A DNA stretch of 64,000 nt from an uncultured bacterium (GCA_964387845.1 CAYLXA010000002.1:96001-160000); one strand, 5' to 3'. Shown: positions 4,608-49,478, counted from the first letter of the stretch. Numbers and translations: made by a program. Notes: generated from the letters alone by a model not told the origin.

Positions 4608-6560
4608 ATGAATACACTTTTAATTCTTGATGATTTGGCGGAGCTTCTATCATCTAAAAATAAAACCATACAAAAGCTGCTTTCGGCGTACTTGCAGCAT
4701 TTGGCGCGTTCAGCCGATGGCGCGGCTGAGGAGTTGTTGCGTGACGGTGATACGGTTTTTGCGGCAGGTCCGCAGGAGGTTTTAAGCCGTGTCACAGGAC
4801 CTTGCGAAAAGCTGGATTACGGAATCTGGTTCGATACAATCCCGTTTGCGCGCGGCGGGGAGATTGCAGGAAAGATAGTGGAGCAGATTCGGGTTTCCGA
4901 AGAGCTTAAGTCGATCTGCCCGTTTCTGTATCGGAACACGATTTCAATTCCAAAAATCGCCGCGATGCGGCTGATCATTACATTCTGCTACCACGCGGTC
5001 AATAATTATCTTTTACTTGAAAGCATCATTCGAAAAAAGCAAATTCAGAAAATCGTGGTTTTGGGGTCTGGTGCTGAAATTGAAATTTTAGGAAAAGAAT
5101 TGTCAAAGAAGCATCGCTTACAGTTTCAAGTCATGCGCCCTCATGATGTAATTTTAAAATTAAAAGTTAGGTTTGCTGATTATCTTTTTTATCGAGACAG
5201 AAAACTTCATGCCCTTCAATCGTTTCAAAACTGCGACAGCTTGCCTAAGCAAGAAATCAAGAAGAGGAACCATAAAAAATTGATCGCCATGCTTCCGGCG
5301 CATTCCCTTCATTTTAAAATCATGGACTCGCTCATGGGCGCGCTTCGCCAATCGCGCAATTATGAGCCATGCGTGCTGCTTCAAGATGCTTTTGAGCCGT
5401 ATCAAGGGGCATTGAAAAATTCGGGAATAGCATTCCGATTTCTTCATGATTTTTCGAGCAGGGAACTTATGGGAAAATTTCAAAATTATTTTAAAAATCT
5501 CAAATCTGCTTGGAAGAAATTAAGAAATTCGGATACATTTAAATCTGCGTTTGACTGCGATGGGCTCAATTGGTTCGATATTCTGAGAGTCGAAATGGAG
5601 TGGTTTTTTAAATTCAGCTATGCTGAAACGCTGGTCTTGCAGGAGCGCTTACGAAAAGCGATGGCAGATGTGCCGATAGATTCCGTTTTTACTTTTAGCG
5701 ATTCACGGTTTTTTGAAGCGGGAGGTGCGGCAATTGCACGGGAGATGAAAAAGCCCTCGTTTTTATATTCTCCTAATTTTTTATACGATACAGACGGTAT
5801 TAACGACTACGATACGGCGGAATTTGTTTTGACCGTGGGCAATCAAATGAAAGATTATATTGCGGCGCGCGGCAAGGTGAATCCGAGTCAAATTTTCACC
5901 GTTGGCGATATCCGTTTTGACGGAAGCGAAAAATGGCGAAGCAGCGATCAGGCCGAGAAAACTCGTGTACAGCTTCAAATTCCATCGGACAAAAAGGTAT
6001 TTATTCTAACCTCGTTTTACACTTGCTTTGGCTATAATGCATACGACAAGAAACGCTTCTTTGAAATGATTCGAGATGCCGCCAAAGCCAATCCGGACGT
6101 TGCGATTGTGATCAAGGCACATCCGAACGAGAGCGAAGAAGTTCTGCGGCAATTTGTTAAAAGTTTGGGCATGAGTGATTTTCCGTTAACAAAAACAATG
6201 CCGCTTTATTCGCTGTTTGGAATATCCAGCGGGCTTATTTCGTTGACGTCTCTTGCGGCAGTCGAAGCCATGGCATTGGATTTACCGGTTATCATTGCGA
6301 CGCTGCCGGATCGAAATTACGATTACTATATCCCATTTCGCCAATCCGATTCGGCAGCGTATGCTGCAAGCGCCGAAGAGCTCTCCTTGATTTTTAGAAA
6401 ATTAATTGATGAATCGAACTACAAAAAAAATTTGTTGGAACGGCATCGACAATTTGTTTCGCGTTATGTGGACCGAGGCGGGCAGAGCGCCGGCCAACGG
6501 GTTATTCAGGTTCTAGATAAAATTGTGAATTCCGAACGTGAGAATTTGGGGCAGCTCTAA
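4608..6560 (+). CDS. TagF-like GT-B glycosyl/glycerophosphotransferase family protein with HP motif (possible CMP-nonulosonate transferase)
   Basis: C-terminal half resembles CDP-glycerol glycerophosphotransferase/capsule biosynthesis family (KVFILTSFYT..., VIKAHPNESEE HP motif); sits directly upstream of CMP-sugar synthetase gene. Confidence 0.4.
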   Translation: MNTLLILDDLAELLSSKNKTIQKLLSAYLQHLARSADGAAEELLRDGDTVFAAGPQEVLSRVTGPCEKLDYGIWFDTIPFARGGEIAGKIVEQIRVSEELKSICPFLYRNTISIPKIAAMRLIITFCYHAVNNYLLLESIIRKKQIQKIVVLGSGAEIEILGKELSKKHRLQFQVMRPHDVILKLKVRFADYLFYRDRKLHALQSFQNCDSLPKQEIKKRNHKKLIAMLPAHSLHFKIMDSLMGALRQSRNYEPCVLLQDAFEPYQGALKNSGIAFRFLHDFSSRELMGKFQNYFKNLKSAWKKLRNSDTFKSAFDCDGLNWFDILRVEMEWFFKFSYAETLVLQERLRKAMADVPIDSVFTFSDSRFFEAGGAAIAREMKKPSFLYSPNFLYDTDGINDYDTAEFVLTVGNQMKDYIAARGKVNPSQIFTVGDIRFDGSEKWRSSDQAEKTRVQLQIPSDKKVFILTSFYTCFGYNAYDKKRFFEMIRDAAKANPDVAIVIKAHPNESEEVLRQFVKSLGMSDFPLTKTMPLYSLFGISSGLISLTSLAAVEAMALDLPVIIATLPDRNYDYYIPFRQSDSAAYAASAEELSLIFRKLIDESNYKKNLLERHRQFVSRYVDRGGQSAGQRVIQVLDKIVNSERENLGQL

Positions 6561-16381: not shown

Positions 16382-17557
16382 ATGAAGCGAATAAAATCCA
16401 ACATAGACGCCACAAGTGTTCTGAAGGCTGTTAGGAAGTGCTTGCCCGGGGACAGTCGCCCCATCCAACTTCACGAGCCCTGGTTTGCCGGCAACGAGCA
16501 GAAGTATGTCAGTGCGTGCATTAAGAGCGGGATTGTTTCATCGATCGGGCCTTATGTTGAACAGTTTGAGAAACAATTGATCCGATTGACAGGCTCAAAA
16601 TTTGCAATTGCCACGATCAACGGAACAGCTGGGCTTCATACGGCACTCCGAATGGCCGGAGTAGAGGCAAATGATGAGGTTTTAGTGCCGTCATTGTCAT
16701 TCGTTGCAACATCAAATGCGATCGCGTATTGCGGCGCTATTCCTCATTTTATTGACAGTGAGATGCGGGCGCTTGGCGTTGATCCGCACAAGCTTCAGGA
16801 TTATTTGGTAAAAATATCCAAACGGCGAAATAGCGGCTTCATCAATAAAACAACAGGCCGGAGAATAAGAGCGGCGGTTGTGGTGCATACATTCGGCCAC
16901 CCGGCGGATCTTGACGCTATCCAGGCAGTTTGCAAAAAATTTAAACTTCCACTAATTGAAGATGCTGCAGAATCGATCGGATCCTATTACAAAGGGAAGC
17001 ACACCGGTACAATCGGAGACTTTGGTGTTTTAAGCTTTAACGGCAACAAAACAATCACGTCAGGCGGCGGAGGCGCGATTTTAGTACAGAATCAAAAACT
17101 GGCAAAACATCTCCGGCACATTACAACCACCGCTAAAATACCTCATGCTTGGCGTTATTATCATGATGAAATCGGATATAATTATCGGCTTCCCAATCTA
17201 AACGCTGCGCTTGGCTGTGCGCAATTGGAGTCGCTGCCGATGTTTATCAAGCGCAAACGGGCCTTAGCCAAACGTTACGAGAAGGCTTTCTCCCATATTA
17301 ATGGAGTTAGTTTTATTAAGGAACCTCCTTTTGCAAAAAGCAACTACTGGCTAAATGCTGTCAGGCTGGAAGGTGTTGGATTGCGGGAAAGAGATCGGTT
17401 TTTAACGCTTATGCACACGCACAACATTAAAACAAGGCCGGTGTGGACACTGACGCATCGTCTTCCTATGTATCGAAATTGCCCGCGAATGGATATGTCC
17501 GTATCAGAGAAAATTGAAAAAGAAACTATTAACCTGCCCAGCAGCCCAGCGTTATGA
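16382..17557 (+). CDS. DegT/DnrJ/EryC1/StrS-family PLP-dependent sugar aminotransferase (LegC/PseC-like)
   Basis: Family-typical segments GDEVLVPSLSFVATSNAI, FGVLSFNGNKTITSGGGGAIL (PLP-lysine region). Confidence 0.8.
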   Translation: MKRIKSNIDATSVLKAVRKCLPGDSRPIQLHEPWFAGNEQKYVSACIKSGIVSSIGPYVEQFEKQLIRLTGSKFAIATINGTAGLHTALRMAGVEANDEVLVPSLSFVATSNAIAYCGAIPHFIDSEMRALGVDPHKLQDYLVKISKRRNSGFINKTTGRRIRAAVVVHTFGHPADLDAIQAVCKKFKLPLIEDAAESIGSYYKGKHTGTIGDFGVLSFNGNKTITSGGGGAILVQNQKLAKHLRHITTTAKIPHAWRYYHDEIGYNYRLPNLNAALGCAQLESLPMFIKRKRALAKRYEKAFSHINGVSFIKEPPFAKSNYWLNAVRLEGVGLRERDRFLTLMHTHNIKTRPVWTLTHRLPMYRNCPRMDMSVSEKIEKETINLPSSPAL

Positions 17558-19737
17558 AGCGAAGAATTTGTGTAGTTACTAGTTCGCGCGCCGATTTTGG
17601 TCATCTGCAGTGGGTCATGACCTATCTGAAAAAAGATCCGAGAGTTCGCTTGCAAGTTGTGGTGACCGGCTCACACTTATCTCGCGCGCATGGAACCACC
17701 TTGCGCGAAATTCAGGACGCGGGAATTTCTGAATCTGCTCGGATTCCAATCATTGCAAAAGGGGATTCTGTTGTTGCGATAACGCAAGCGGCTGGAATGG
17801 CATTGAGCAGATTTGCAAAGGTCTTTGACAGGCTCAAACCCGAATTGCTGCTGGTTGTGGGAGATCGTTATGAAATTCATTCGGCCGTAACGGCGGCGCT
17901 TCTCGCTAAAATTCCGGTTGCACATATTGCCGGTGGCGACATTACGGAAGGGGCATTCGATGACGCGTTGCGGCACAGTATCACCAAAATGGCTCATTTG
18001 CACTTTGTGACAAATGCCGTGTCGGCGAAACGAATTCGGCACATGGGAGAAAACCCTTCGCATATTTTTAACGTTGGAAATCCTGCGCTTGACCATGTAA
18101 CGAAATCAAAATTATTCACTAAAAACGAAATTGAGGAGAAGCTTGCTTTCAAAATGCGCTCACGCAATATCTTGATTACGTTTCATCCGGTTACGCTGGA
18201 CACCGAACCATCTGACCGGCAATTTAAACAGTTGCTGAGCTCGCTGAATCGGTTGGGAGACGAATATGGCCTTATTTTTACTAGGCCCAACGCGGATCCG
18301 GCAGGACAAAAGATATCTAAATTGATCGATCATTTTGTCAAAACGCATTCAAACGCTATTGTAAAAGCCTCGCTAGGTCATTTGTTATACTTAAGCATCA
18401 TGAATGAAGTTGATTTGGTTGTCGGAAATTCATCAAGCGGGATTTATGAGGCGCCAACATTTAAAATTCCCACAGTTAACATCGGAAACCGGCAAAAAGG
18501 CCGCTTGCGAGCGGCTTCTGTGATTGATTGCGCGCCGAGCAGGGCGGCAATTAGCCGAGCAATTCGGTCAGCTCTAGCAAAGGATTGCTCGCAGGTTGAA
18601 AATCCTTACGGACGGGGAAATAGTTCCGAGCAAATTTATAAGATTATTCGCTCTGTCCAGAACCCAAAAACACTAATTCAAAAGAAATTTTATGATGCCG
18701 GCGTGCCCACTAAAACTGGGCCGGTTTATGTGATCGCCGAAGCGGGGGTGAATCATGGCGGCTCGCTGAAACTTGCAAAAAAACTGATCGACGCAGCTTC
18801 GCAAGCCGGCGCTAATGCGGTCAAGTTTCAAACTTTTGATTCGGATATGCTGGTAACGCGACAAGCTAAAAAAGCAAAATACCAGCAAGACACAACCGGC
18901 AAAAATGGGTCTCAATATGAAATGCTCAAAAAATTAGAACTCAGCCAGAAAGATCATTTTGCGCTGAAAGCTCACTGCAAAAAAAGAAAAATTGATTTTT
19001 TATCGACCCCTTTTGATTTAAAAAGCCTTGATTTCTTAATCAACAATCTGCAGGTCCGGAAAATTAAAATATCTTCAGGCGATATTACCAACGGGCCGCT
19101 ACTGTTGAAAGCTGCGGAATCAAAACTTCCGATTATTTTATCAACCGGAATGTCAACGCTTGACGAAATTGAAGCTGCCGTAAGATTGATCGAGAAAGGA
19201 TATCGATCCAGCGCCTCTCTTTTAAAATCAAACTTAAAACTGCTTCATTGTACAAGCGAATATCCGGCCTCATTTTCTGATATGAATTTGTTATCGATCG
19301 ATTTTTTAAGAAATTATTTTCAATTGGATGCCGGGCTGTCAGATCATTCGAGCGGGATAGCAGCTGCAATTGCAGCCGTAGGGCGCGGCGCATCCATTAT
19401 TGAAAAACACATTACTTTGAATAAAAGCATGGCAGGCCCCGATCACCGCGCATCGCTTGATCCGAATGAGTTTCGAGAACTGGTTCGATCAATTCGCCAA
19501 GTCGAAGAAGCTATGGGATCCTACGTAAAAAGGCCGGCAGCGTCAGAATTAAAAAACCGAAGCGCAGCCAGAAAGAGCATCGTCGCTTCCAAGCCGATTA
19601 AACGCGGAGAAAGGCTGACCCGTCACAATCTGGCGCTGAAGCGTCCCGGTGTCGGGATCAGCCCCATGAATCTTTCGGAAGTCATAGGACGACTATCAAC
19701 CAAAAATTATAAAAAAGACGATATCATTGTTATCTAA
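17554..19737 (+). CDS. bifunctional fusion: N-terminal hydrolysing UDP/GDP-HexNAc 2-epimerase (NeuC/LegG-like) + C-terminal nonulosonic acid synthase with SAF domain (NeuB/LegI-like)
   Basis: N-term RICVVTSSRADFGHL...VVTGSHL, LLVVGDRYEIHS (NeuC family); C-term YVIAEAGVNHGGSL...NAVKFQTF, LLHCTSEYPA, SDHSSG (NeuB TIM barrel) and C-terminal SAF/antifreeze-like domain. Confidence 0.8.
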   Translation: MKRRICVVTSSRADFGHLQWVMTYLKKDPRVRLQVVVTGSHLSRAHGTTLREIQDAGISESARIPIIAKGDSVVAITQAAGMALSRFAKVFDRLKPELLLVVGDRYEIHSAVTAALLAKIPVAHIAGGDITEGAFDDALRHSITKMAHLHFVTNAVSAKRIRHMGENPSHIFNVGNPALDHVTKSKLFTKNEIEEKLAFKMRSRNILITFHPVTLDTEPSDRQFKQLLSSLNRLGDEYGLIFTRPNADPAGQKISKLIDHFVKTHSNAIVKASLGHLLYLSIMNEVDLVVGNSSSGIYEAPTFKIPTVNIGNRQKGRLRAASVIDCAPSRAAISRAIRSALAKDCSQVENPYGRGNSSEQIYKIIRSVQNPKTLIQKKFYDAGVPTKTGPVYVIAEAGVNHGGSLKLAKKLIDAASQAGANAVKFQTFDSDMLVTRQAKKAKYQQDTTGKNGSQYEMLKKLELSQKDHFALKAHCKKRKIDFLSTPFDLKSLDFLINNLQVRKIKISSGDITNGPLLLKAAESKLPIILSTGMSTLDEIEAAVRLIEKGYRSSASLLKSNLKLLHCTSEYPASFSDMNLLSIDFLRNYFQLDAGLSDHSSGIAAAIAAVGRGASIIEKHITLNKSMAGPDHRASLDPNEFRELVRSIRQVEEAMGSYVKRPAASELKNRSAARKSIVASKPIKRGERLTRHNLALKRPGVGISPMNLSEVIGRLSTKNYKKDDIIVI

Positions 19738-33706: not shown

Positions 33707-34860
33707 ACAAAACAAAAATACTACATCTAACGACCCATTTGAATATTGGCGGTATCACAACCTATATTTATTTATTGGGCAAGGGACTTGACTCGGCTCA
33801 TTATGAGACCTCTGTTTTTTCAAGCGGCGGTGAAATGGAAAAACAATTCAACAAGTCCGGAATTCGTACTTACGCGTCACCATTCAGAACCAAGAGCGAA
33901 TTAAGCCCGAAGCTTTATTTCGCCATTCCGGAAGTAATTCGCATTATTAAAAACGAAAATATTAATTTATTGCATGCACACACCCGCGTTACGCAAGTCA
34001 TGGCGTGGTGGATCCAGAAAATCACCGGGATTCCTTATGTCTCAACCTGTCATGGTTTCTATAAAAGACGGCTAGGCAGGCGTTTGCTGCCGGCTTGGGG
34101 CAATAAAGTAATCGCGATTAGCCCGCCGGTGGCTGACTCTCTGGTAAACGAATTTAAGGTTCCTGCTGAAAAAGTTAAAACCATTTTGAATGCTATCGAT
34201 ATTGATACTTTAGAGGATTTGGTTCGACAAAAAAATCAGTCAAGCATTACCATCGAATATGATTTGCAATCCACAAAACCTATTTTGGGAATAGTGGCTC
34301 GGATTGTAAAAGATAAGGGGCATGAATATTTGCTTAAGGCCTTCGCGCAGCTGCTGCCTCAATATCCGGACTTGAAATTATTGGTGGTTGGAACCGGCAG
34401 TTATTTGTCCGACGTTAAAAAGCTGGCTGATCAGTTAAGCCTCACTAAAAATTTAACATTTGTGGGCAATCTTAATGATGTTACGAAAGCGCTGGCAGTG
34501 ATTGATATTTTTATATTACCCGCTGTCTGGCGCGAGGGTTTTGGCTTGTCGATTGTCGAGGCGATGGCATTAAAGAAACCAGTTATTGCAACCAATATCT
34601 GGGCTCTCAATTCATTGGTCCAAAACAAAGTGAACGGACTTTTGATTCAACCCAAAAACGTTACAGAGCTGGCTAGTGCGATTACGGAGCTGATTGAAAA
34701 TCAAGACCTGAGAAGAGCGGTAGGTGAAAAAGCTTACAAAACCGTGCAGGAACAATTCTCAATCAAGCGAATGACACGGGATTTCGATCGCCTATATCAA
34801 CAAATACTGCAATCTGACAGCAGATTAGCCGGCAAGAAATCTTCAGCGATGGCGCGTTGA
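33703..34860 (+). CDS. glycosyltransferase family 4
   Basis: NIGGITTYIY N-term, EGFGLSIVEAMALKKPVIAT (EX7E). Confidence 0.65.
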   Translation: MNKTKILHLTTHLNIGGITTYIYLLGKGLDSAHYETSVFSSGGEMEKQFNKSGIRTYASPFRTKSELSPKLYFAIPEVIRIIKNENINLLHAHTRVTQVMAWWIQKITGIPYVSTCHGFYKRRLGRRLLPAWGNKVIAISPPVADSLVNEFKVPAEKVKTILNAIDIDTLEDLVRQKNQSSITIEYDLQSTKPILGIVARIVKDKGHEYLLKAFAQLLPQYPDLKLLVVGTGSYLSDVKKLADQLSLTKNLTFVGNLNDVTKALAVIDIFILPAVWREGFGLSIVEAMALKKPVIATNIWALNSLVQNKVNGLLIQPKNVTELASAITELIENQDLRRAVGEKAYKTVQEQFSIKRMTRDFDRLYQQILQSDSRLAGKKSSAMAR

Positions 34861-34884
34861 CAGTCTTTTCAGTATCTGTATAAT
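34857..34884 (+). promoter_or_regulatory. consensus sigma70-type promoter TTGACA-N16-TATAAT for gap
   Basis: TTGACA 34857-34862 (overlapping upstream stop), TATAAT 34879-34884; RBS GGAGGAAAA before ATG 34944. Confidence 0.55.
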
Positions 34885-34931: not shown

Positions 34932-36047
<1,116 letters not shown>

Positions 36048-36084
36048 CCCGGACTACTTTTCTTAAATTCCTAAAGGTGGGGAA

Positions 36085-36381
36085 ATGCTGAAGTTCCGCC
36101 TTCAAGTAATGAGCCTGAAAAGAATCTTGTTTGACGCTGACGTCGAACAAGTTCATATTTTCGGCGATGAGGGCGAGTACGATCTTTTGGCCTATCACTA
36201 CCCTATTATTGGCGCCTTGCCGGAAGGCGAGGTCCACATCAAAGACCACAAAAACATCCCGCTTCGGGCAGGTGTGGCGCTTTTTCGTCAGAACCGCTGC
36301 CTGATTATTATCGAAGAAAAGGATGCGGAAGGCGCACCAACCGACAAGCCTTCCATCAACCCAATAGGCAAGAAAGACTAG
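36085..36381 (+). CDS. ATP synthase epsilon-subunit-like beta-sandwich protein (orphan atpC-like)
   Basis: 98 aa; pattern LQVMSLKRILFDADVEQVHIFGDEGEYDLLAYHYPIIGALPEGEVHI matches AtpC N-terminal domain consensus (V.S...F.G.V..V...G.EGE.GIL.gH.P....L..G...I); good RBS AAGGTGGGG; not in an atp operon. Confidence 0.4.
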   Translation: MLKFRLQVMSLKRILFDADVEQVHIFGDEGEYDLLAYHYPIIGALPEGEVHIKDHKNIPLRAGVALFRQNRCLIIIEEKDAEGAPTDKPSINPIGKKD

Positions 36382-37143
36382 ATGTGGCTTTCAGCGTTTG
36401 CTTTTATTGTTTCCATCGTTTTTCTGATCCGCAGTCTTGAAATAATTCCCGGCGGCCAGCCGCTTTTAAATGCATTGGTGTGCCTATTTTCACTGTTAGC
36501 AGCCCTCTTCTTTCTTCCTGGCGAGTTGATTAGTTCGGCAATTTTAGAGGGTTTCGGGTGGTTTGTTGCAATCTTTGCCGGCAGTCTTGTTTTGATTGAA
36601 TTTGTTCAATTGATTTTTAAAAGACTTTTGCGGTGGGGATCGCTCCGATTGCAAACCACGGCCGGTCTTTCTCCGGAACATGACGAAATTTGCAAAGCGC
36701 TTGATCACATGGCAAAGCAGAAAACCGGCGCCCTTATCGTCCTTGAACGTAAAGGATCATTGAAGCATTTGTATGAAAATGGGTTTCAATTCGATAGTGA
36801 TGTTCGAGCTGAAGTCATCATCTCGCTTTTCGACAAAAATTCGCCGTTGCATGACGGCGCAATGATTATCAGCCAAAACCGGATCAAAGCATTAAAAATC
36901 ATCCTTCCATTAACTACGCGTTCTGATGTACCGCTCGGGATCGGGACCCGCCACCGTTCGGCAATCGGCCTGACTGAGACAACGGATGCCATTGCGCTTA
37001 TCTCATCGGAAGAGCGGGGCATGCTAAGCATTTCTTACCAAGGCGCTTTGGTAGTAGCCAACTCTAAAAACCAGTTCGCAGAACTCTTAAAACGAGCACT
37101 GAAGGGCTTTCCGATCATTGAGCCTGTGCAAGAGTCTGACTAA
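36382..37143 (+). CDS. cdaA: diadenylate cyclase CdaA (DisA_N/DAC domain, membrane-anchored)
   Basis: 3 N-terminal TM helices; DAC motifs DGAMII and GTRHRSA; translationally coupled to upstream atpC-like gene (TAG-ATG). Confidence 0.85.
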   Translation: MWLSAFAFIVSIVFLIRSLEIIPGGQPLLNALVCLFSLLAALFFLPGELISSAILEGFGWFVAIFAGSLVLIEFVQLIFKRLLRWGSLRLQTTAGLSPEHDEICKALDHMAKQKTGALIVLERKGSLKHLYENGFQFDSDVRAEVIISLFDKNSPLHDGAMIISQNRIKALKIILPLTTRSDVPLGIGTRHRSAIGLTETTDAIALISSEERGMLSISYQGALVVANSKNQFAELLKRALKGFPIIEPVQESD

Positions 37144-37158
37144 TTTTGTCATATTTTC

Positions 37159-37186
37159 TTGATTTTCCGCTAAACTCGCGTATAAT
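37159..37186 (+). promoter_or_regulatory. near-consensus sigma70 promoter TTGATT-N16-TATAAT
   Basis: TTGATT 37159-37164, TATAAT 37181-37186; predicted TSS ~37193. Confidence 0.5.
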
Positions 37187-37209
37187 TACATTACTTTTTG
37201 GAAAACTCG

Positions 37210-37359
37210 ATGGAAAACACTCTGAACCTAAAACACTTTAAAAGCAGTGTAAAACCCGCGACAGGCGCCGTGTCGATGGCGTGGTCTATTATGGGCCACG
37301 GCTATTGTCATCGCCGCAAGCTCGTGGGCTTGAAGGAGGTTCAAGCGTTACTATCGTAA
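37210..37359 (+). CDS. hypothetical 49-aa micro-protein (alternative reading of the same unit)
   Basis: ATG..TAA ORF MENTLNLKHFKSSVKPATGAVSMAWSIMGHGYCHRRKLVGLKEVQALLS; only weak SD (GGAA) 8-11 nt upstream. Confidence 0.2.
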   Translation: MENTLNLKHFKSSVKPATGAVSMAWSIMGHGYCHRRKLVGLKEVQALLS

Positions 37360-37395
37360 AGTAGTTTAAAGTAGTAAAAGCAAAATCAACTTAAG

Positions 37396-37427
37396 CCCAT
37401 GGCTGAAATTCAGTCATGGGTTTTTTT
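37396..37427 (+). terminator. Rho-independent terminator
   Basis: CCCATGGCTG-aaatt-CAGTCATGGG (10-bp stem with one G.U) followed by TTTTTTT. Confidence 0.7.
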
Positions 37428-37445
37428 ATTTTCAGGAGGTTTCAG

Positions 37446-47497: not shown

Positions 47498-48691
47498 ATG
47501 AATAAGCAGACCATTTCAGATATCGATGTCAAAGGCAAGCGCGTTATTATCCGTGCCGATTTCAATGTGCCTCTTGATAAGTCGGGAAACATTACAGATG
47601 ATGCCCGCATTGCCAAAACCATTCCAACAATCAAAAATTTGCTCGAGCGGAAAGCAAAAGTTGTTTTAATGTCTCACTTGGGTCGCCCAAAAGGGAAGCC
47701 GGAGGCAGAGTTCAGCCTGGCGCCCGTCGCCAAACGGTTAACCGAACTTTTGAAGCAACCTATCGAACTAACGCCGGACTGCGTCGGGCCGGAAGTCGAA
47801 TCAAAAGTGAAAAACCTGAAAGATGGCCAAGCGCTTCTGCTTGAAAATTTGAGATTTCACAAAGAAGAAGAAAAGAACGATCCCGCATTCTCCAAACAAC
47901 TCGCTTCGCTTGCTGATATTTATGTCAATGACGCATTTGGCGCCGCGCACAGGGCACATGCATCAACGGAAGGTATCGCGAAGCATTTGCCGGCTGTTGC
48001 AGGCTTTTTACTTGCAAAGGAAATTGAATATTTCAGTAAGGCGCTCGAAAACCCCGACCGGCCGTTTGTAACGATCCTGGGCGGAGCCAAAGTTTCGGAC
48101 AAGATTAAAGTCATTGAAAACCTGCTTTCAAAAGTAGACGGGTTGTTGATCGGCGGCGCCATGGCATACACGTTTTTAAAATCGCAGGGACTGGCAATCG
48201 GAAAATCCAAACTCGATGAGCCCGGCATCGATATTGCCAAACAGATTTTAGCGAAGGCAAAGCAAGAAAAAATAGAAATTCTGCTTCCTGTCGATCATGT
48301 CGTGTCGCAGGAGATTTCTGAAAATGCCCCTACTAAAGTTGTCGACGAGATTCCTGAGGGCTGGATGGCGGTCGATATCGGTCCTAAAACCGTTCAGGAA
48401 TTTTCAAAGCGTTTATCCGCCTCCAAAATGGTGATTTGGAACGGCCCGGTGGGCATATTTGAAATGAAACCATTCGCTAACGGAACCAAACAACTTGCCG
48501 ATACATTAAGCAAGTTAAAAGCAACTACCATTATCGGCGGCGGAGACACGGCTGCAGCGGTTAAAGAATTTGGATACGAAGAAAAAATGTCGCACGTCTC
48601 AACCGGCGGCGGCGCATCGCTTGAATTTCTAGAAGGAATTGAACTTCCGGGCGTTCGTGCGCTGAACAACAAATCGAAAGCAAAGGTTTAA
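47498..48691 (+). CDS. pgk: phosphoglycerate kinase
   Basis: [25 protein letters not shown] motifs. Confidence 0.95.
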
Positions 48692-48692
48692 T

Positions 48693-49478
48693 ATGAATCG
48701 TCCTCTGATTGTCGGAAATTGGAAAATGTACAAGAACATTCCGGAAACGGTTTCGCTCATTAACAGCATCAAAGCCGGCGTTCATTCCGTGACGAATGTC
48801 GATATTGTCGTCTGTCCGCCGTTCACCGCGCTCGCATCAGCGTCTACGGCCTTAAAAGATAGCAAGATTGATTTGGGTGCTCAGGATATGTATCACGAAA
48901 CGGAAGGCGCATTTACGGGCGAGGTTTCGCCGTTGATGCTAAAAGATGTGGGTTGTCGGTATGTCATCTTAGGCCATTCGGAACGCCGCACGATTTTCAA
49001 AGAACCGGACGAGCTGATTGAAAAGAAGCTGCTCGCTGCAATGAAGTACAGTTTTATTCCGATTTTATGCATTGGTGAAACCTTGGAAGAGCGGGAAGCC
49101 CGCAAAGCGTTCGAAGTCGTGAAGCGTCAGTTTGACATCGCCATGGTCCACATTGATCCCAGCGAAATGGAAAGGATCGTCATTGCCTATGAACCCGTGT
49201 GGGCGATTGGTACCGGGCGCACAGCAACGCCGGAACAGGCTGAACAGATGCATTCTTATATCCGAAGATTGCTGCATGAAAAGCACGGTGACGACATCGC
49301 GCAAAAAGTAAAAATTCTTTACGGCGGCAGCGTGAAGCCGGATAATATTGCACAGCTCATGGAACGTCCGAATTTGGACGGCGCTCTTGTCGGCGGCGCT
49401 TCCTTGAAAGCCGAATCATTCATTCAAATCGTTAAAAATTCCGTTGCGCTTGAAACCCAGGAGAAATCCTCATCATGA
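48693..49478 (+). CDS. tpiA: triosephosphate isomerase
   Basis: GNWKM, ILGHSERR, AYEPVWAIGTG. Confidence 0.95.
   Translation: MNRPLIVGNWKMYKNIPETVSLINSIKAGVHSVTNVDIVVCPPFTALASASTALKDSKIDLGAQDMYHETEGAFTGEVSPLMLKDVGCRYVILGHSERRTIFKEPDELIEKKLLAAMKYSFIPILCIGETLEEREARKAFEVVKRQFDIAMVHIDPSEMERIVIAYEPVWAIGTGRTATPEQAEQMHSYIRRLLHEKHGDDIAQKVKILYGGSVKPDNIAQLMERPNLDGALVGGASLKAESFIQIVKNSVALETQEKSSS

Follow-up and report, generated by a model that had tools for sequence, protein, structure and literature searches.

The 64,000-nucleotide stretch of DNA considered here (the window) belongs to an Omnitrophota bacterium and carries, between gap and the diadenylate cyclase gene cdaA, a small gene whose product resembles the epsilon subunit of ATP synthases. 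Which machine does such a solitary subunit serve, and does its position beside cdaA mean anything? The earlier note on this DNA had left two answers: a regulator of CdaA built on a borrowed epsilon fold, or the genuine atpC displaced from its operon.

The epsilon gene and its surroundings

The gene (36085-36381, + strand) starts with ATG, encodes 98 amino acids and is assigned as an epsilon-type subunit gene by Pfam, NCBIfam, a PDB profile search, AlphaFold2, Foldseek and its orthologues in ATPase clusters. The good ribosome-binding site noticed earlier can be read directly in the sequence 5' of the ATG as the Shine-Dalgarno-like AGGTGGGG (36075-36082, +). The stop codon of gap is separated from the start of the epsilon gene by 37 nt. 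At its other end, the TAG stop codon (36379-36381) does abut the cdaA ATG at 36382, with zero spacer, as the note had stated.

PF02823 (ATP-synt_DE_N), the profile on which the note had proposed to check its AtpC-like N-terminal beta-sandwich, is the sole Pfam match of the protein and covers residues 4-77 with an E-value of 2.2e-10 and 40.8 bits, above the gathering cut-off of 27; YbbR or GlmM (phosphoglucosamine-mutase) domains were absent in the same Pfam search. A PDB search with the family profile returned 35 matches (best E 4e-11), exclusively ATP-synthase epsilon or mitochondrial delta chains. Among the NCBIfam models, 15 for epsilon matched the protein and all 15 remained far under their cut-offs, the best being TIGR01216 (36.3 bits at a cut-off of 67.25) and the second best NF009983 (35 bits). 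By profile and by fold the protein is thus a member of the F-type ATPase epsilon family; it stays below the score of a curated AtpC equivalog, and its gene is not encoded within an atp gene cluster but has gap and cdaA as neighbours.

The AlphaFold2 model, computed from a 43-sequence alignment (mean pLDDT 86), folds residues 1-80 into a beta-sandwich of eight strands (pLDDT >90) and leaves residues 82-98 as a disordered tail. Compared by Foldseek, it matches the E. coli epsilon subunit 1aqt with a TM-score of 0.73 and an rmsd of 1.6 A over 80 columns, and the top 50 PDB matches listed are ATP-synthase epsilon or mitochondrial delta chains, with the exception of one integrative model. The beta-sandwich suspected from the sequence pattern is therefore borne out by profile and model alike. 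So is the short tail: the C-terminal helical hairpin, i.e. the inhibitory or ATP-binding domain, was not found in the model, and residues 82-98 contain no helix. The whole family is devoid of this hairpin, including the copies that reside in ATPase clusters; the short tail is a family-wide trait and not a consequence of orphan status. Since the C-terminal helices are missing, the epsilon of the window cannot serve as a classical inhibitory latch.

Upstream, gap (34944-36047, +) encodes a glyceraldehyde-3-phosphate dehydrogenase (Pfam Gp_dh_N and Gp_dh_C). It is preceded by a promoter-like site, TTGACA-16-TATAAT (34857-34884, +), which agreed with the sigma-70 consensus at 12 of 12 positions in a consensus scan. 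Because this perfect consensus stands before gap, the three genes gap, epsilon and cdaA look like, and judging from the DNA alone likely are, a single transcription unit. Downstream, cdaA (36382-37143, +) encodes a CdaA-type membrane diadenylate cyclase of 253 aa with three N-terminal hydrophobic, presumed transmembrane, helices and a DAC domain (PF02457, 125.8 bits); its best NCBIfam model is TIGR00159 CdaA, with 140.5 bits under a cut-off of 188.8. A CdaR/YbbR gene after cdaA was found in the window neither by Pfam nor by tblastn with the YbbR C-terminal fragment of locus L002.

The window holds no further atp genes, in agreement with the note: tblastn of the 64 kb with alpha, beta, gamma, b/delta, c and PilB of a related cluster recovered the epsilon gene alone, and Pfam identified housekeeping genes among about 30 other large ORFs. 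Besides gap, epsilon and cdaA, the stretch comprises genes for polysaccharide synthesis and a GT4 glycosyltransferase, priA and fmt. In addition, the window holds two small ORFs, genes for a PD-(D/E)XK nuclease, an SPFH protein and DJ-1, the glycogen-related glgB, GH57 and malQ, as well as pgk, tpi, recG, plsX-fabHD..F and smc.

Some further observations concern the window as a whole. All 49 of its ORFs of at least 180 aa lie on the + strand, so that the entire 64 kb is co-directional. A 727-aa fusion of UDP-GlcNAc 2-epimerase, NeuB and SAF domains (17554-19737), related to sialic or nonulosonic acid synthesis, is embedded in a large block of glycosyltransferase, Wzy and sugar-transferase genes. 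Rfam and tRNA scans of the window gave nothing at threshold. Between cdaA and the next ORF, however, lies a candidate for an unclassified small RNA or leader (37159-37432, +). It has a promoter-like TTGATT-16-TATAAT; about 205 nt after this site are predicted to form a very stable fold (-89 kcal/mol, z = -6.9), and the element terminates with a 14-bp stem and T-run terminator. Rfam assigned no family to it at threshold, the weak match to His_leader scoring 27 bits. Compared with the sister species of the window organism (L101, L102), about 90% of the alignment columns of the element are kept, at 65% identity of the flanking CdaA protein, and its central hairpin carries a compensatory change from CGTGG/CCACG to CATGG/CCATG. 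A 53-aa ORF (37198-37359) is an alternative reading of this stretch.

Epsilon genes inside and outside pilus-linked ATPase clusters

An HMMER scan with the family profile over 1.84 billion representatives yielded 271 proteins at E <= 0.001, the best of which are mostly 75-110 aa long. Applied to a larger collection, a 30-sequence profile recovered 161 clusters, whose organism-named members are mostly Omnitrophica, plus Lentisphaerae and Kiritimatiellae. The nearest relatives that reside in ATPase gene clusters share 54-70% identity with the window protein. Three of the recovered proteins (P0204, P0207 and P0175) are encoded between alpha and c in clusters that join ATPase and type IV pilus genes (L016-L018), and the window protein is about 63-64% identical to P0204, the epsilon of L016. 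These clusters have the order repeat protein, about 440-aa protein, alpha, epsilon, c, OSCP-type b/delta, gamma and beta, and 3' of beta follow pilB (MshEN-T2SSE-PilZ), pilC, pilins and pilM/N. In total we found 16 clusters with epsilon: in 13, namely L016-L018 and ten metagenome clusters, it lies between alpha and c, and in three elsewhere in or beside the cluster. Two clusters (L034 and L037) have the order epsilon-c-delta-alpha-gamma-beta, and the contig of L033 holds only the alpha-to-delta segment of its cluster. The Walker A motifs of alpha and beta are GGAGCGKS and GDKxTGKT and not the canonical ones, the c subunit carries the conserved carboxylate (Glu), and a Pfam-recognisable subunit a was not found in any cluster inspected among L016-L037.

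These clusters correspond to the ATPase that Seymour et al. (2023; PMC10066038) describe as a non-respiratory 'symbiotic' type-2/3-like F-type ATPase located by type-4a pili throughout the Omnitrophota. Alpha and beta of the cluster are treated there, and in the portions of the supplementary files that our search covered no mention of an epsilon subunit was found (PMC10066038). A literature search for F1-like ATPases combined with pili returned nothing else of relevance.

Several features of the clusters deserve a record of their own. Two tandem alpha-like genes are present in L018, L035 and L036. Control by c-di-GMP is suggested by the MshEN and PilZ domains of the PilB that adjoins the ATPase genes. 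The first gene of the cluster (L016 3-2333; L017 1-1923; L021 126-2339; L025 72-8507) encodes dozens of about 17-residue repeats with the consensus ...GVNWTD..., reaches 2811 aa in L025 and ends in a non-repetitive, coiled C-terminus. The second encodes a conserved protein of 440-470 aa that has a signal peptide, is anchored in the membrane by its C-terminus and lacks a Pfam match.

Outside such clusters, the window gene is not alone. A word-indexed search gave four other clusters of sequences at 59-85% identity to its product, with Candidatus Omnitrophica CG11_45_26 as the named relative; the supplement of Seymour et al. (PMC10066038) lists this organism as Abzuiibacterium crystallinum, class Omnitrophia. 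Altogether, orphan epsilon genes were found in four different genomic contexts, three of which are without cdaA and hold orthologues at 53-71% identity. In Abzuiibacterium (L001-L006) the orphan, 71% identical to the window protein and located on contig PFGO01000089.1 in L001, follows the gene of a 2267-aa protein and precedes those of a 141-aa protein and an HMA protein. In two groundwater lineages (L007-L011) its neighbours are a sulfite/nitrite-reductase gene on one side and convergent leuD-leuC on the other, and in a third lineage (L013) it comes after znuA-znuB. The order fmt-GT4-gap-epsilon-cdaA is repeated only in the sister species of the window organism (L101-L103). A further match, in dnaN of a Chthoniobacteraceae genome (L015), was false and discarded; the same contig search gave three true loci.

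Apart from pgk-tpi, no synteny was found to link the window with the other orphan loci. This gene pair is situated 11 kb downstream of the epsilon gene in the window (47498-49478) and, in L013 (4265-6371), follows the orphan at a distance of about 2 kb. This proximity may be the remnant of a shared landing site near glycolytic genes, or chance; it is too weak to distinguish one relocation from several by synteny.

What do the ATPase clusters of lineages with an orphan look like? Searching with the alpha subunit of L016, we recovered P0288 from Abzuiibacterium and P0276, an alpha of the pilus-linked type that is 77% identical to L016 alpha and putatively assigned to the genome of the window. 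The Abzuiibacterium cluster (L020; PFGO01000060.1, GCA_002781965.1) stems from the same assembly as the orphan locus L001. It reads repeat protein, protein of the 440-470-aa type, alpha, c, b/delta, gamma, beta and then pilB onward, with about 40-70 nt from alpha to c, and tblastn of L020 with six epsilon queries at E <= 10 gave no match. The question raised in the note, whether the atp operon of the genome already has an atpC, can be followed in relatives: in Abzuiibacterium, within one assembly, the cluster is without epsilon. A metagenome scan with P0276 returned a second such case (L021), with an alpha 97% identical to P0276. Here alpha stops at 5336 and c starts at 5358, so that 21 nt and no epsilon lie between them, and the other subunits from alpha to beta have normal Pfam matches; putatively, L021 is the cluster of the sister species that carries the orphan P0155. 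A further epsilon-less cluster (L029) stems from the groundwater assembly that also contains the orphan locus L009. Clusters without epsilon are hence shown for lineages with an orphan epsilon in Abzuiibacterium, in the sister species (by way of the putative L021) and on one groundwater contig, and it is in these relatives, rather than in the cluster of the window strain itself, that the epsilon-less state was read.

In neighbour-joining trees the orphans, which share about 53-70% identity with nearby in-cluster copies, are nested within the clade of the nearest in-cluster epsilons at two or three places: the window protein, L101 and L001 next to L022; L007 with L011; and L013 next to L025/L026. 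In a neighbour-joining tree of alpha, the epsilon-less clusters are scattered. Since about 80 aligned residues make such trees weak, we give no more exact figure than one to three relocation events.

The orphans have not lost the character of the family. Of the 21 positions at which the seven nearest in-cluster copies are all identical, they retain 18-20 (19 in the window protein), and their mean pairwise identity is 63%, compared with 59% among in-cluster copies. Between window and sister species the protein identity amounts to 93% for gap, 94% for epsilon and 65% for cdaA, at synonymous sites near saturation (pS 0.69-0.79). The epsilon gene has a dN of 0.043 and a dN/dS of about 0.02, and its dN is the lowest of the five genes compared (gap 0.056, PD-(D/E)XK nuclease 0.155, GT4 0.238, cdaA 0.259). 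As judged from these substitution rates, strong purifying selection on the epsilon gene is shown.

Origin and role of the orphan gene

We conclude, with a probability of roughly three in four, that the window gene is a displaced but functional epsilon of the Omnitrophota pilus-linked F-type-like ATPase that has moved out of its cluster. Of the second answer in the earlier note, the genuine atpC displaced from its operon, the displacement holds; the source, however, would not be a canonical atpBEFHAGDC operon but the pilus-linked Omnitrophota cluster, in which epsilon lies between alpha and c. The partner genes would be found elsewhere on the chromosome, in the order repeat protein, 463-aa membrane-anchored protein, alpha, c, b/delta fusion, gamma and beta, with pilB (MshEN-T2SSE-PilZ), pilC, pilins and pilMN directly after beta. 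In this lineage the epsilon gene would have left that cluster for its present place between gap and cdaA, and the promoter-like site before gap probably drives all three genes. As in solved F1Fo structures, the beta-sandwich of the protein would be expected to dock onto the foot of gamma and onto the top of the c-ring, and the protein may accordingly be pictured as assembling with gamma and c of the distant cluster. Having no inhibitory hairpin, it would act as a structural rotor connector and not as an ATP-sensing brake. The neighbourhood of cdaA would be a by-product of genome rearrangement; the TAG/ATG junction would permit coupling by termination and reinitiation in this strain, yet the junction is not conserved.

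Among the alternatives, a paralogue that has acquired a new, ATPase-independent role retains a small share of plausibility. In that case the clusters lacking epsilon would either function without it or be decaying, which could suit the finding of orphans in four contexts and no fewer than three or four lineages, as well as their variable tails. However, constraint on the orphans is neither relaxed nor redirected, as seen from the 18-20 of 21 retained positions and similar branch lengths, and the epsilon-less clusters have intact ORFs for alpha, c, b/delta, gamma and beta with normal Pfam matches.

A more far-reaching variant, which we regard as doubtful, keeps the link to the ATPase and assumes that epsilon left the cluster more than once, is a regulated and possibly sub-stoichiometric factor, and became wired to gap-cdaA in the genus of the window. 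Its basis is that the orphans look polyphyletic, occupy four contexts and are accompanied by three distinct lineages of epsilon-less clusters. If true, separate expression of epsilon would be favoured, as a regulated assembly or coupling factor of the rotary machine, and activation of the pilus-associated ATPase would be tied to glycolytic flux and c-di-AMP status.

It is unlikely that a canonical respiratory F1Fo ATP synthase, encoded outside the window, has its only atpC in this gene. Some Omnitrophota orders do encode F-type ATPases that are scored as respiratory by Seymour et al. (PMC10066038), and the one KO list found there with a near-complete F-type set names, in the portion covered, a, b, c, alpha, beta, delta and gamma, and not epsilon (K02114). 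The window protein, however, is 54-70% identical to pilus-linked epsilons as against about 14-25% to solved canonical chains, it scores below all NCBIfam epsilon cut-offs, and P0276, the alpha putatively belonging to the window's genome, is of the pilus-linked type with 77% identity to L016 alpha.

Very improbable, in our view, is the first answer of the earlier note, namely a CdaA partner or regulator with an epsilon fold that replaces the missing CdaR and is held at a fixed ratio by translational coupling. The idea is tempting, given the TAG/ATG abutment, the lack of a YbbR/CdaR gene after cdaA in the window and the retention of the epsilon-cdaA order in the sister species, and it could also draw on a YbbR gene (L001 1-238) that precedes the orphan epsilon of Abzuiibacterium by about 10 kb. 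The latter is the only hint at c-di-AMP outside the window's genus, and we treat it as a coincidence. The synteny of cdaA neighbours in relatives, which the note had named as a check, speaks against such a partner: adjacency of epsilon and cdaA is absent from L001-L006, L007-L011 and L013, i.e. from the three other orphan contexts, and is seen only in the window's genus. Even there, 36 nt separate the TGA of epsilon from the conserved cdaA start (MWLS...) in the sister species, and consequently the abutment in the window is due to a deletion at strain level rather than being a conserved device for coupling. Furthermore, the dN of cdaA is about sixfold that of epsilon (0.259 vs 0.043), unlike in a co-evolving pair, and the closest relatives of the window protein are bona fide ATPase-cluster genes, from which the orphans show no shift at conserved positions. 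The regulator fails because of all three: a neighbourhood that is not conserved, unequal evolutionary rates and orthologues in ATPase clusters. With it, the notion of an epsilon-fold regulator of c-di-AMP is removed.

Finally, a decaying remnant without function, as might be suggested by the isolation from partner genes and the short, low-complexity tail, is effectively refuted by the intact ORF, start codon and ribosome-binding site, the confident fold prediction, and 94% protein identity despite saturated synonymous sites at a dN/dS of about 0.02.

Dispersed atp genes are common in bacteria, and the protein of the window is a new member of a known family. Its parent cluster was already described in 2023 (PMC10066038); the complementarity between orphan epsilons and epsilon-less clusters, as far as the portions of the literature covered by our search extend, was not found mentioned. 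What the displaced epsilon adds is a detail of this machine: an F-type-like ATPase with c, gamma, epsilon and b/delta, without a subunit a in the cluster and joined to a type IV pilus locus, in which epsilon is the one component that seems to separate repeatedly from the rest. There is also a practical side, as KO or NCBIfam thresholds miss the short epsilon of Omnitrophota. Since this short subunit is sometimes encoded away from the cluster, ATPase clusters that are counted as 'incomplete' could be complete after all.

Comparison with known systems

With the AtpC of bacterial F1Fo ATP synthases (E. coli 1AQT, Bacillus PS3 2E5Y) the window protein shares the N-terminal beta-sandwich and a PF02823 match above threshold. 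It differs from AtpC in the absence of the C-terminal two-helix domain and in a gene that is not the last of an atp operon, and its identity to the solved canonical epsilon chains is only about 14-25%, with scores below the NCBIfam equivalog cut-offs. The AtpC of Bacteroidota and Chlorobiota is also naturally short and without a helical domain. The naturally short epsilons of NF009983/PRK13449 (an 88-aa model) likewise consist of the beta-sandwich only and, like the window protein, have about 80-100 aa; the window protein falls far short of the cut-off of 106 of this model and derives from another kind of gene cluster.

The likeness to the established partners of CdaA, namely CdaR with its YbbR domains and GlmM, is limited to the position beside cdaA. 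The window protein has neither a YbbR nor a phosphoglucosamine-mutase domain, and the adjacency is not conserved.

The parent cluster itself can be compared with the type 2 and type 3 F1-like ATPase clusters of Mycoplasma, which also encode an epsilon-like protein. In comparison with them, the Omnitrophota cluster adds a carboxylate-bearing c and a b/delta fusion. The alpha subunit of the Omnitrophota cluster is placed with these Mycoplasma ATPases by Seymour et al. (PMC10066038).

The closest counterparts of all are the epsilons of the Omnitrophota 'symbiotic' F-type ATPase themselves. The window protein shares with them the length class of about 75-110 aa and the motif GDEGE[YF]ELL..H.P..G.LPEGE; what sets it apart is the location of its gene, outside the cluster and between gap and cdaA.
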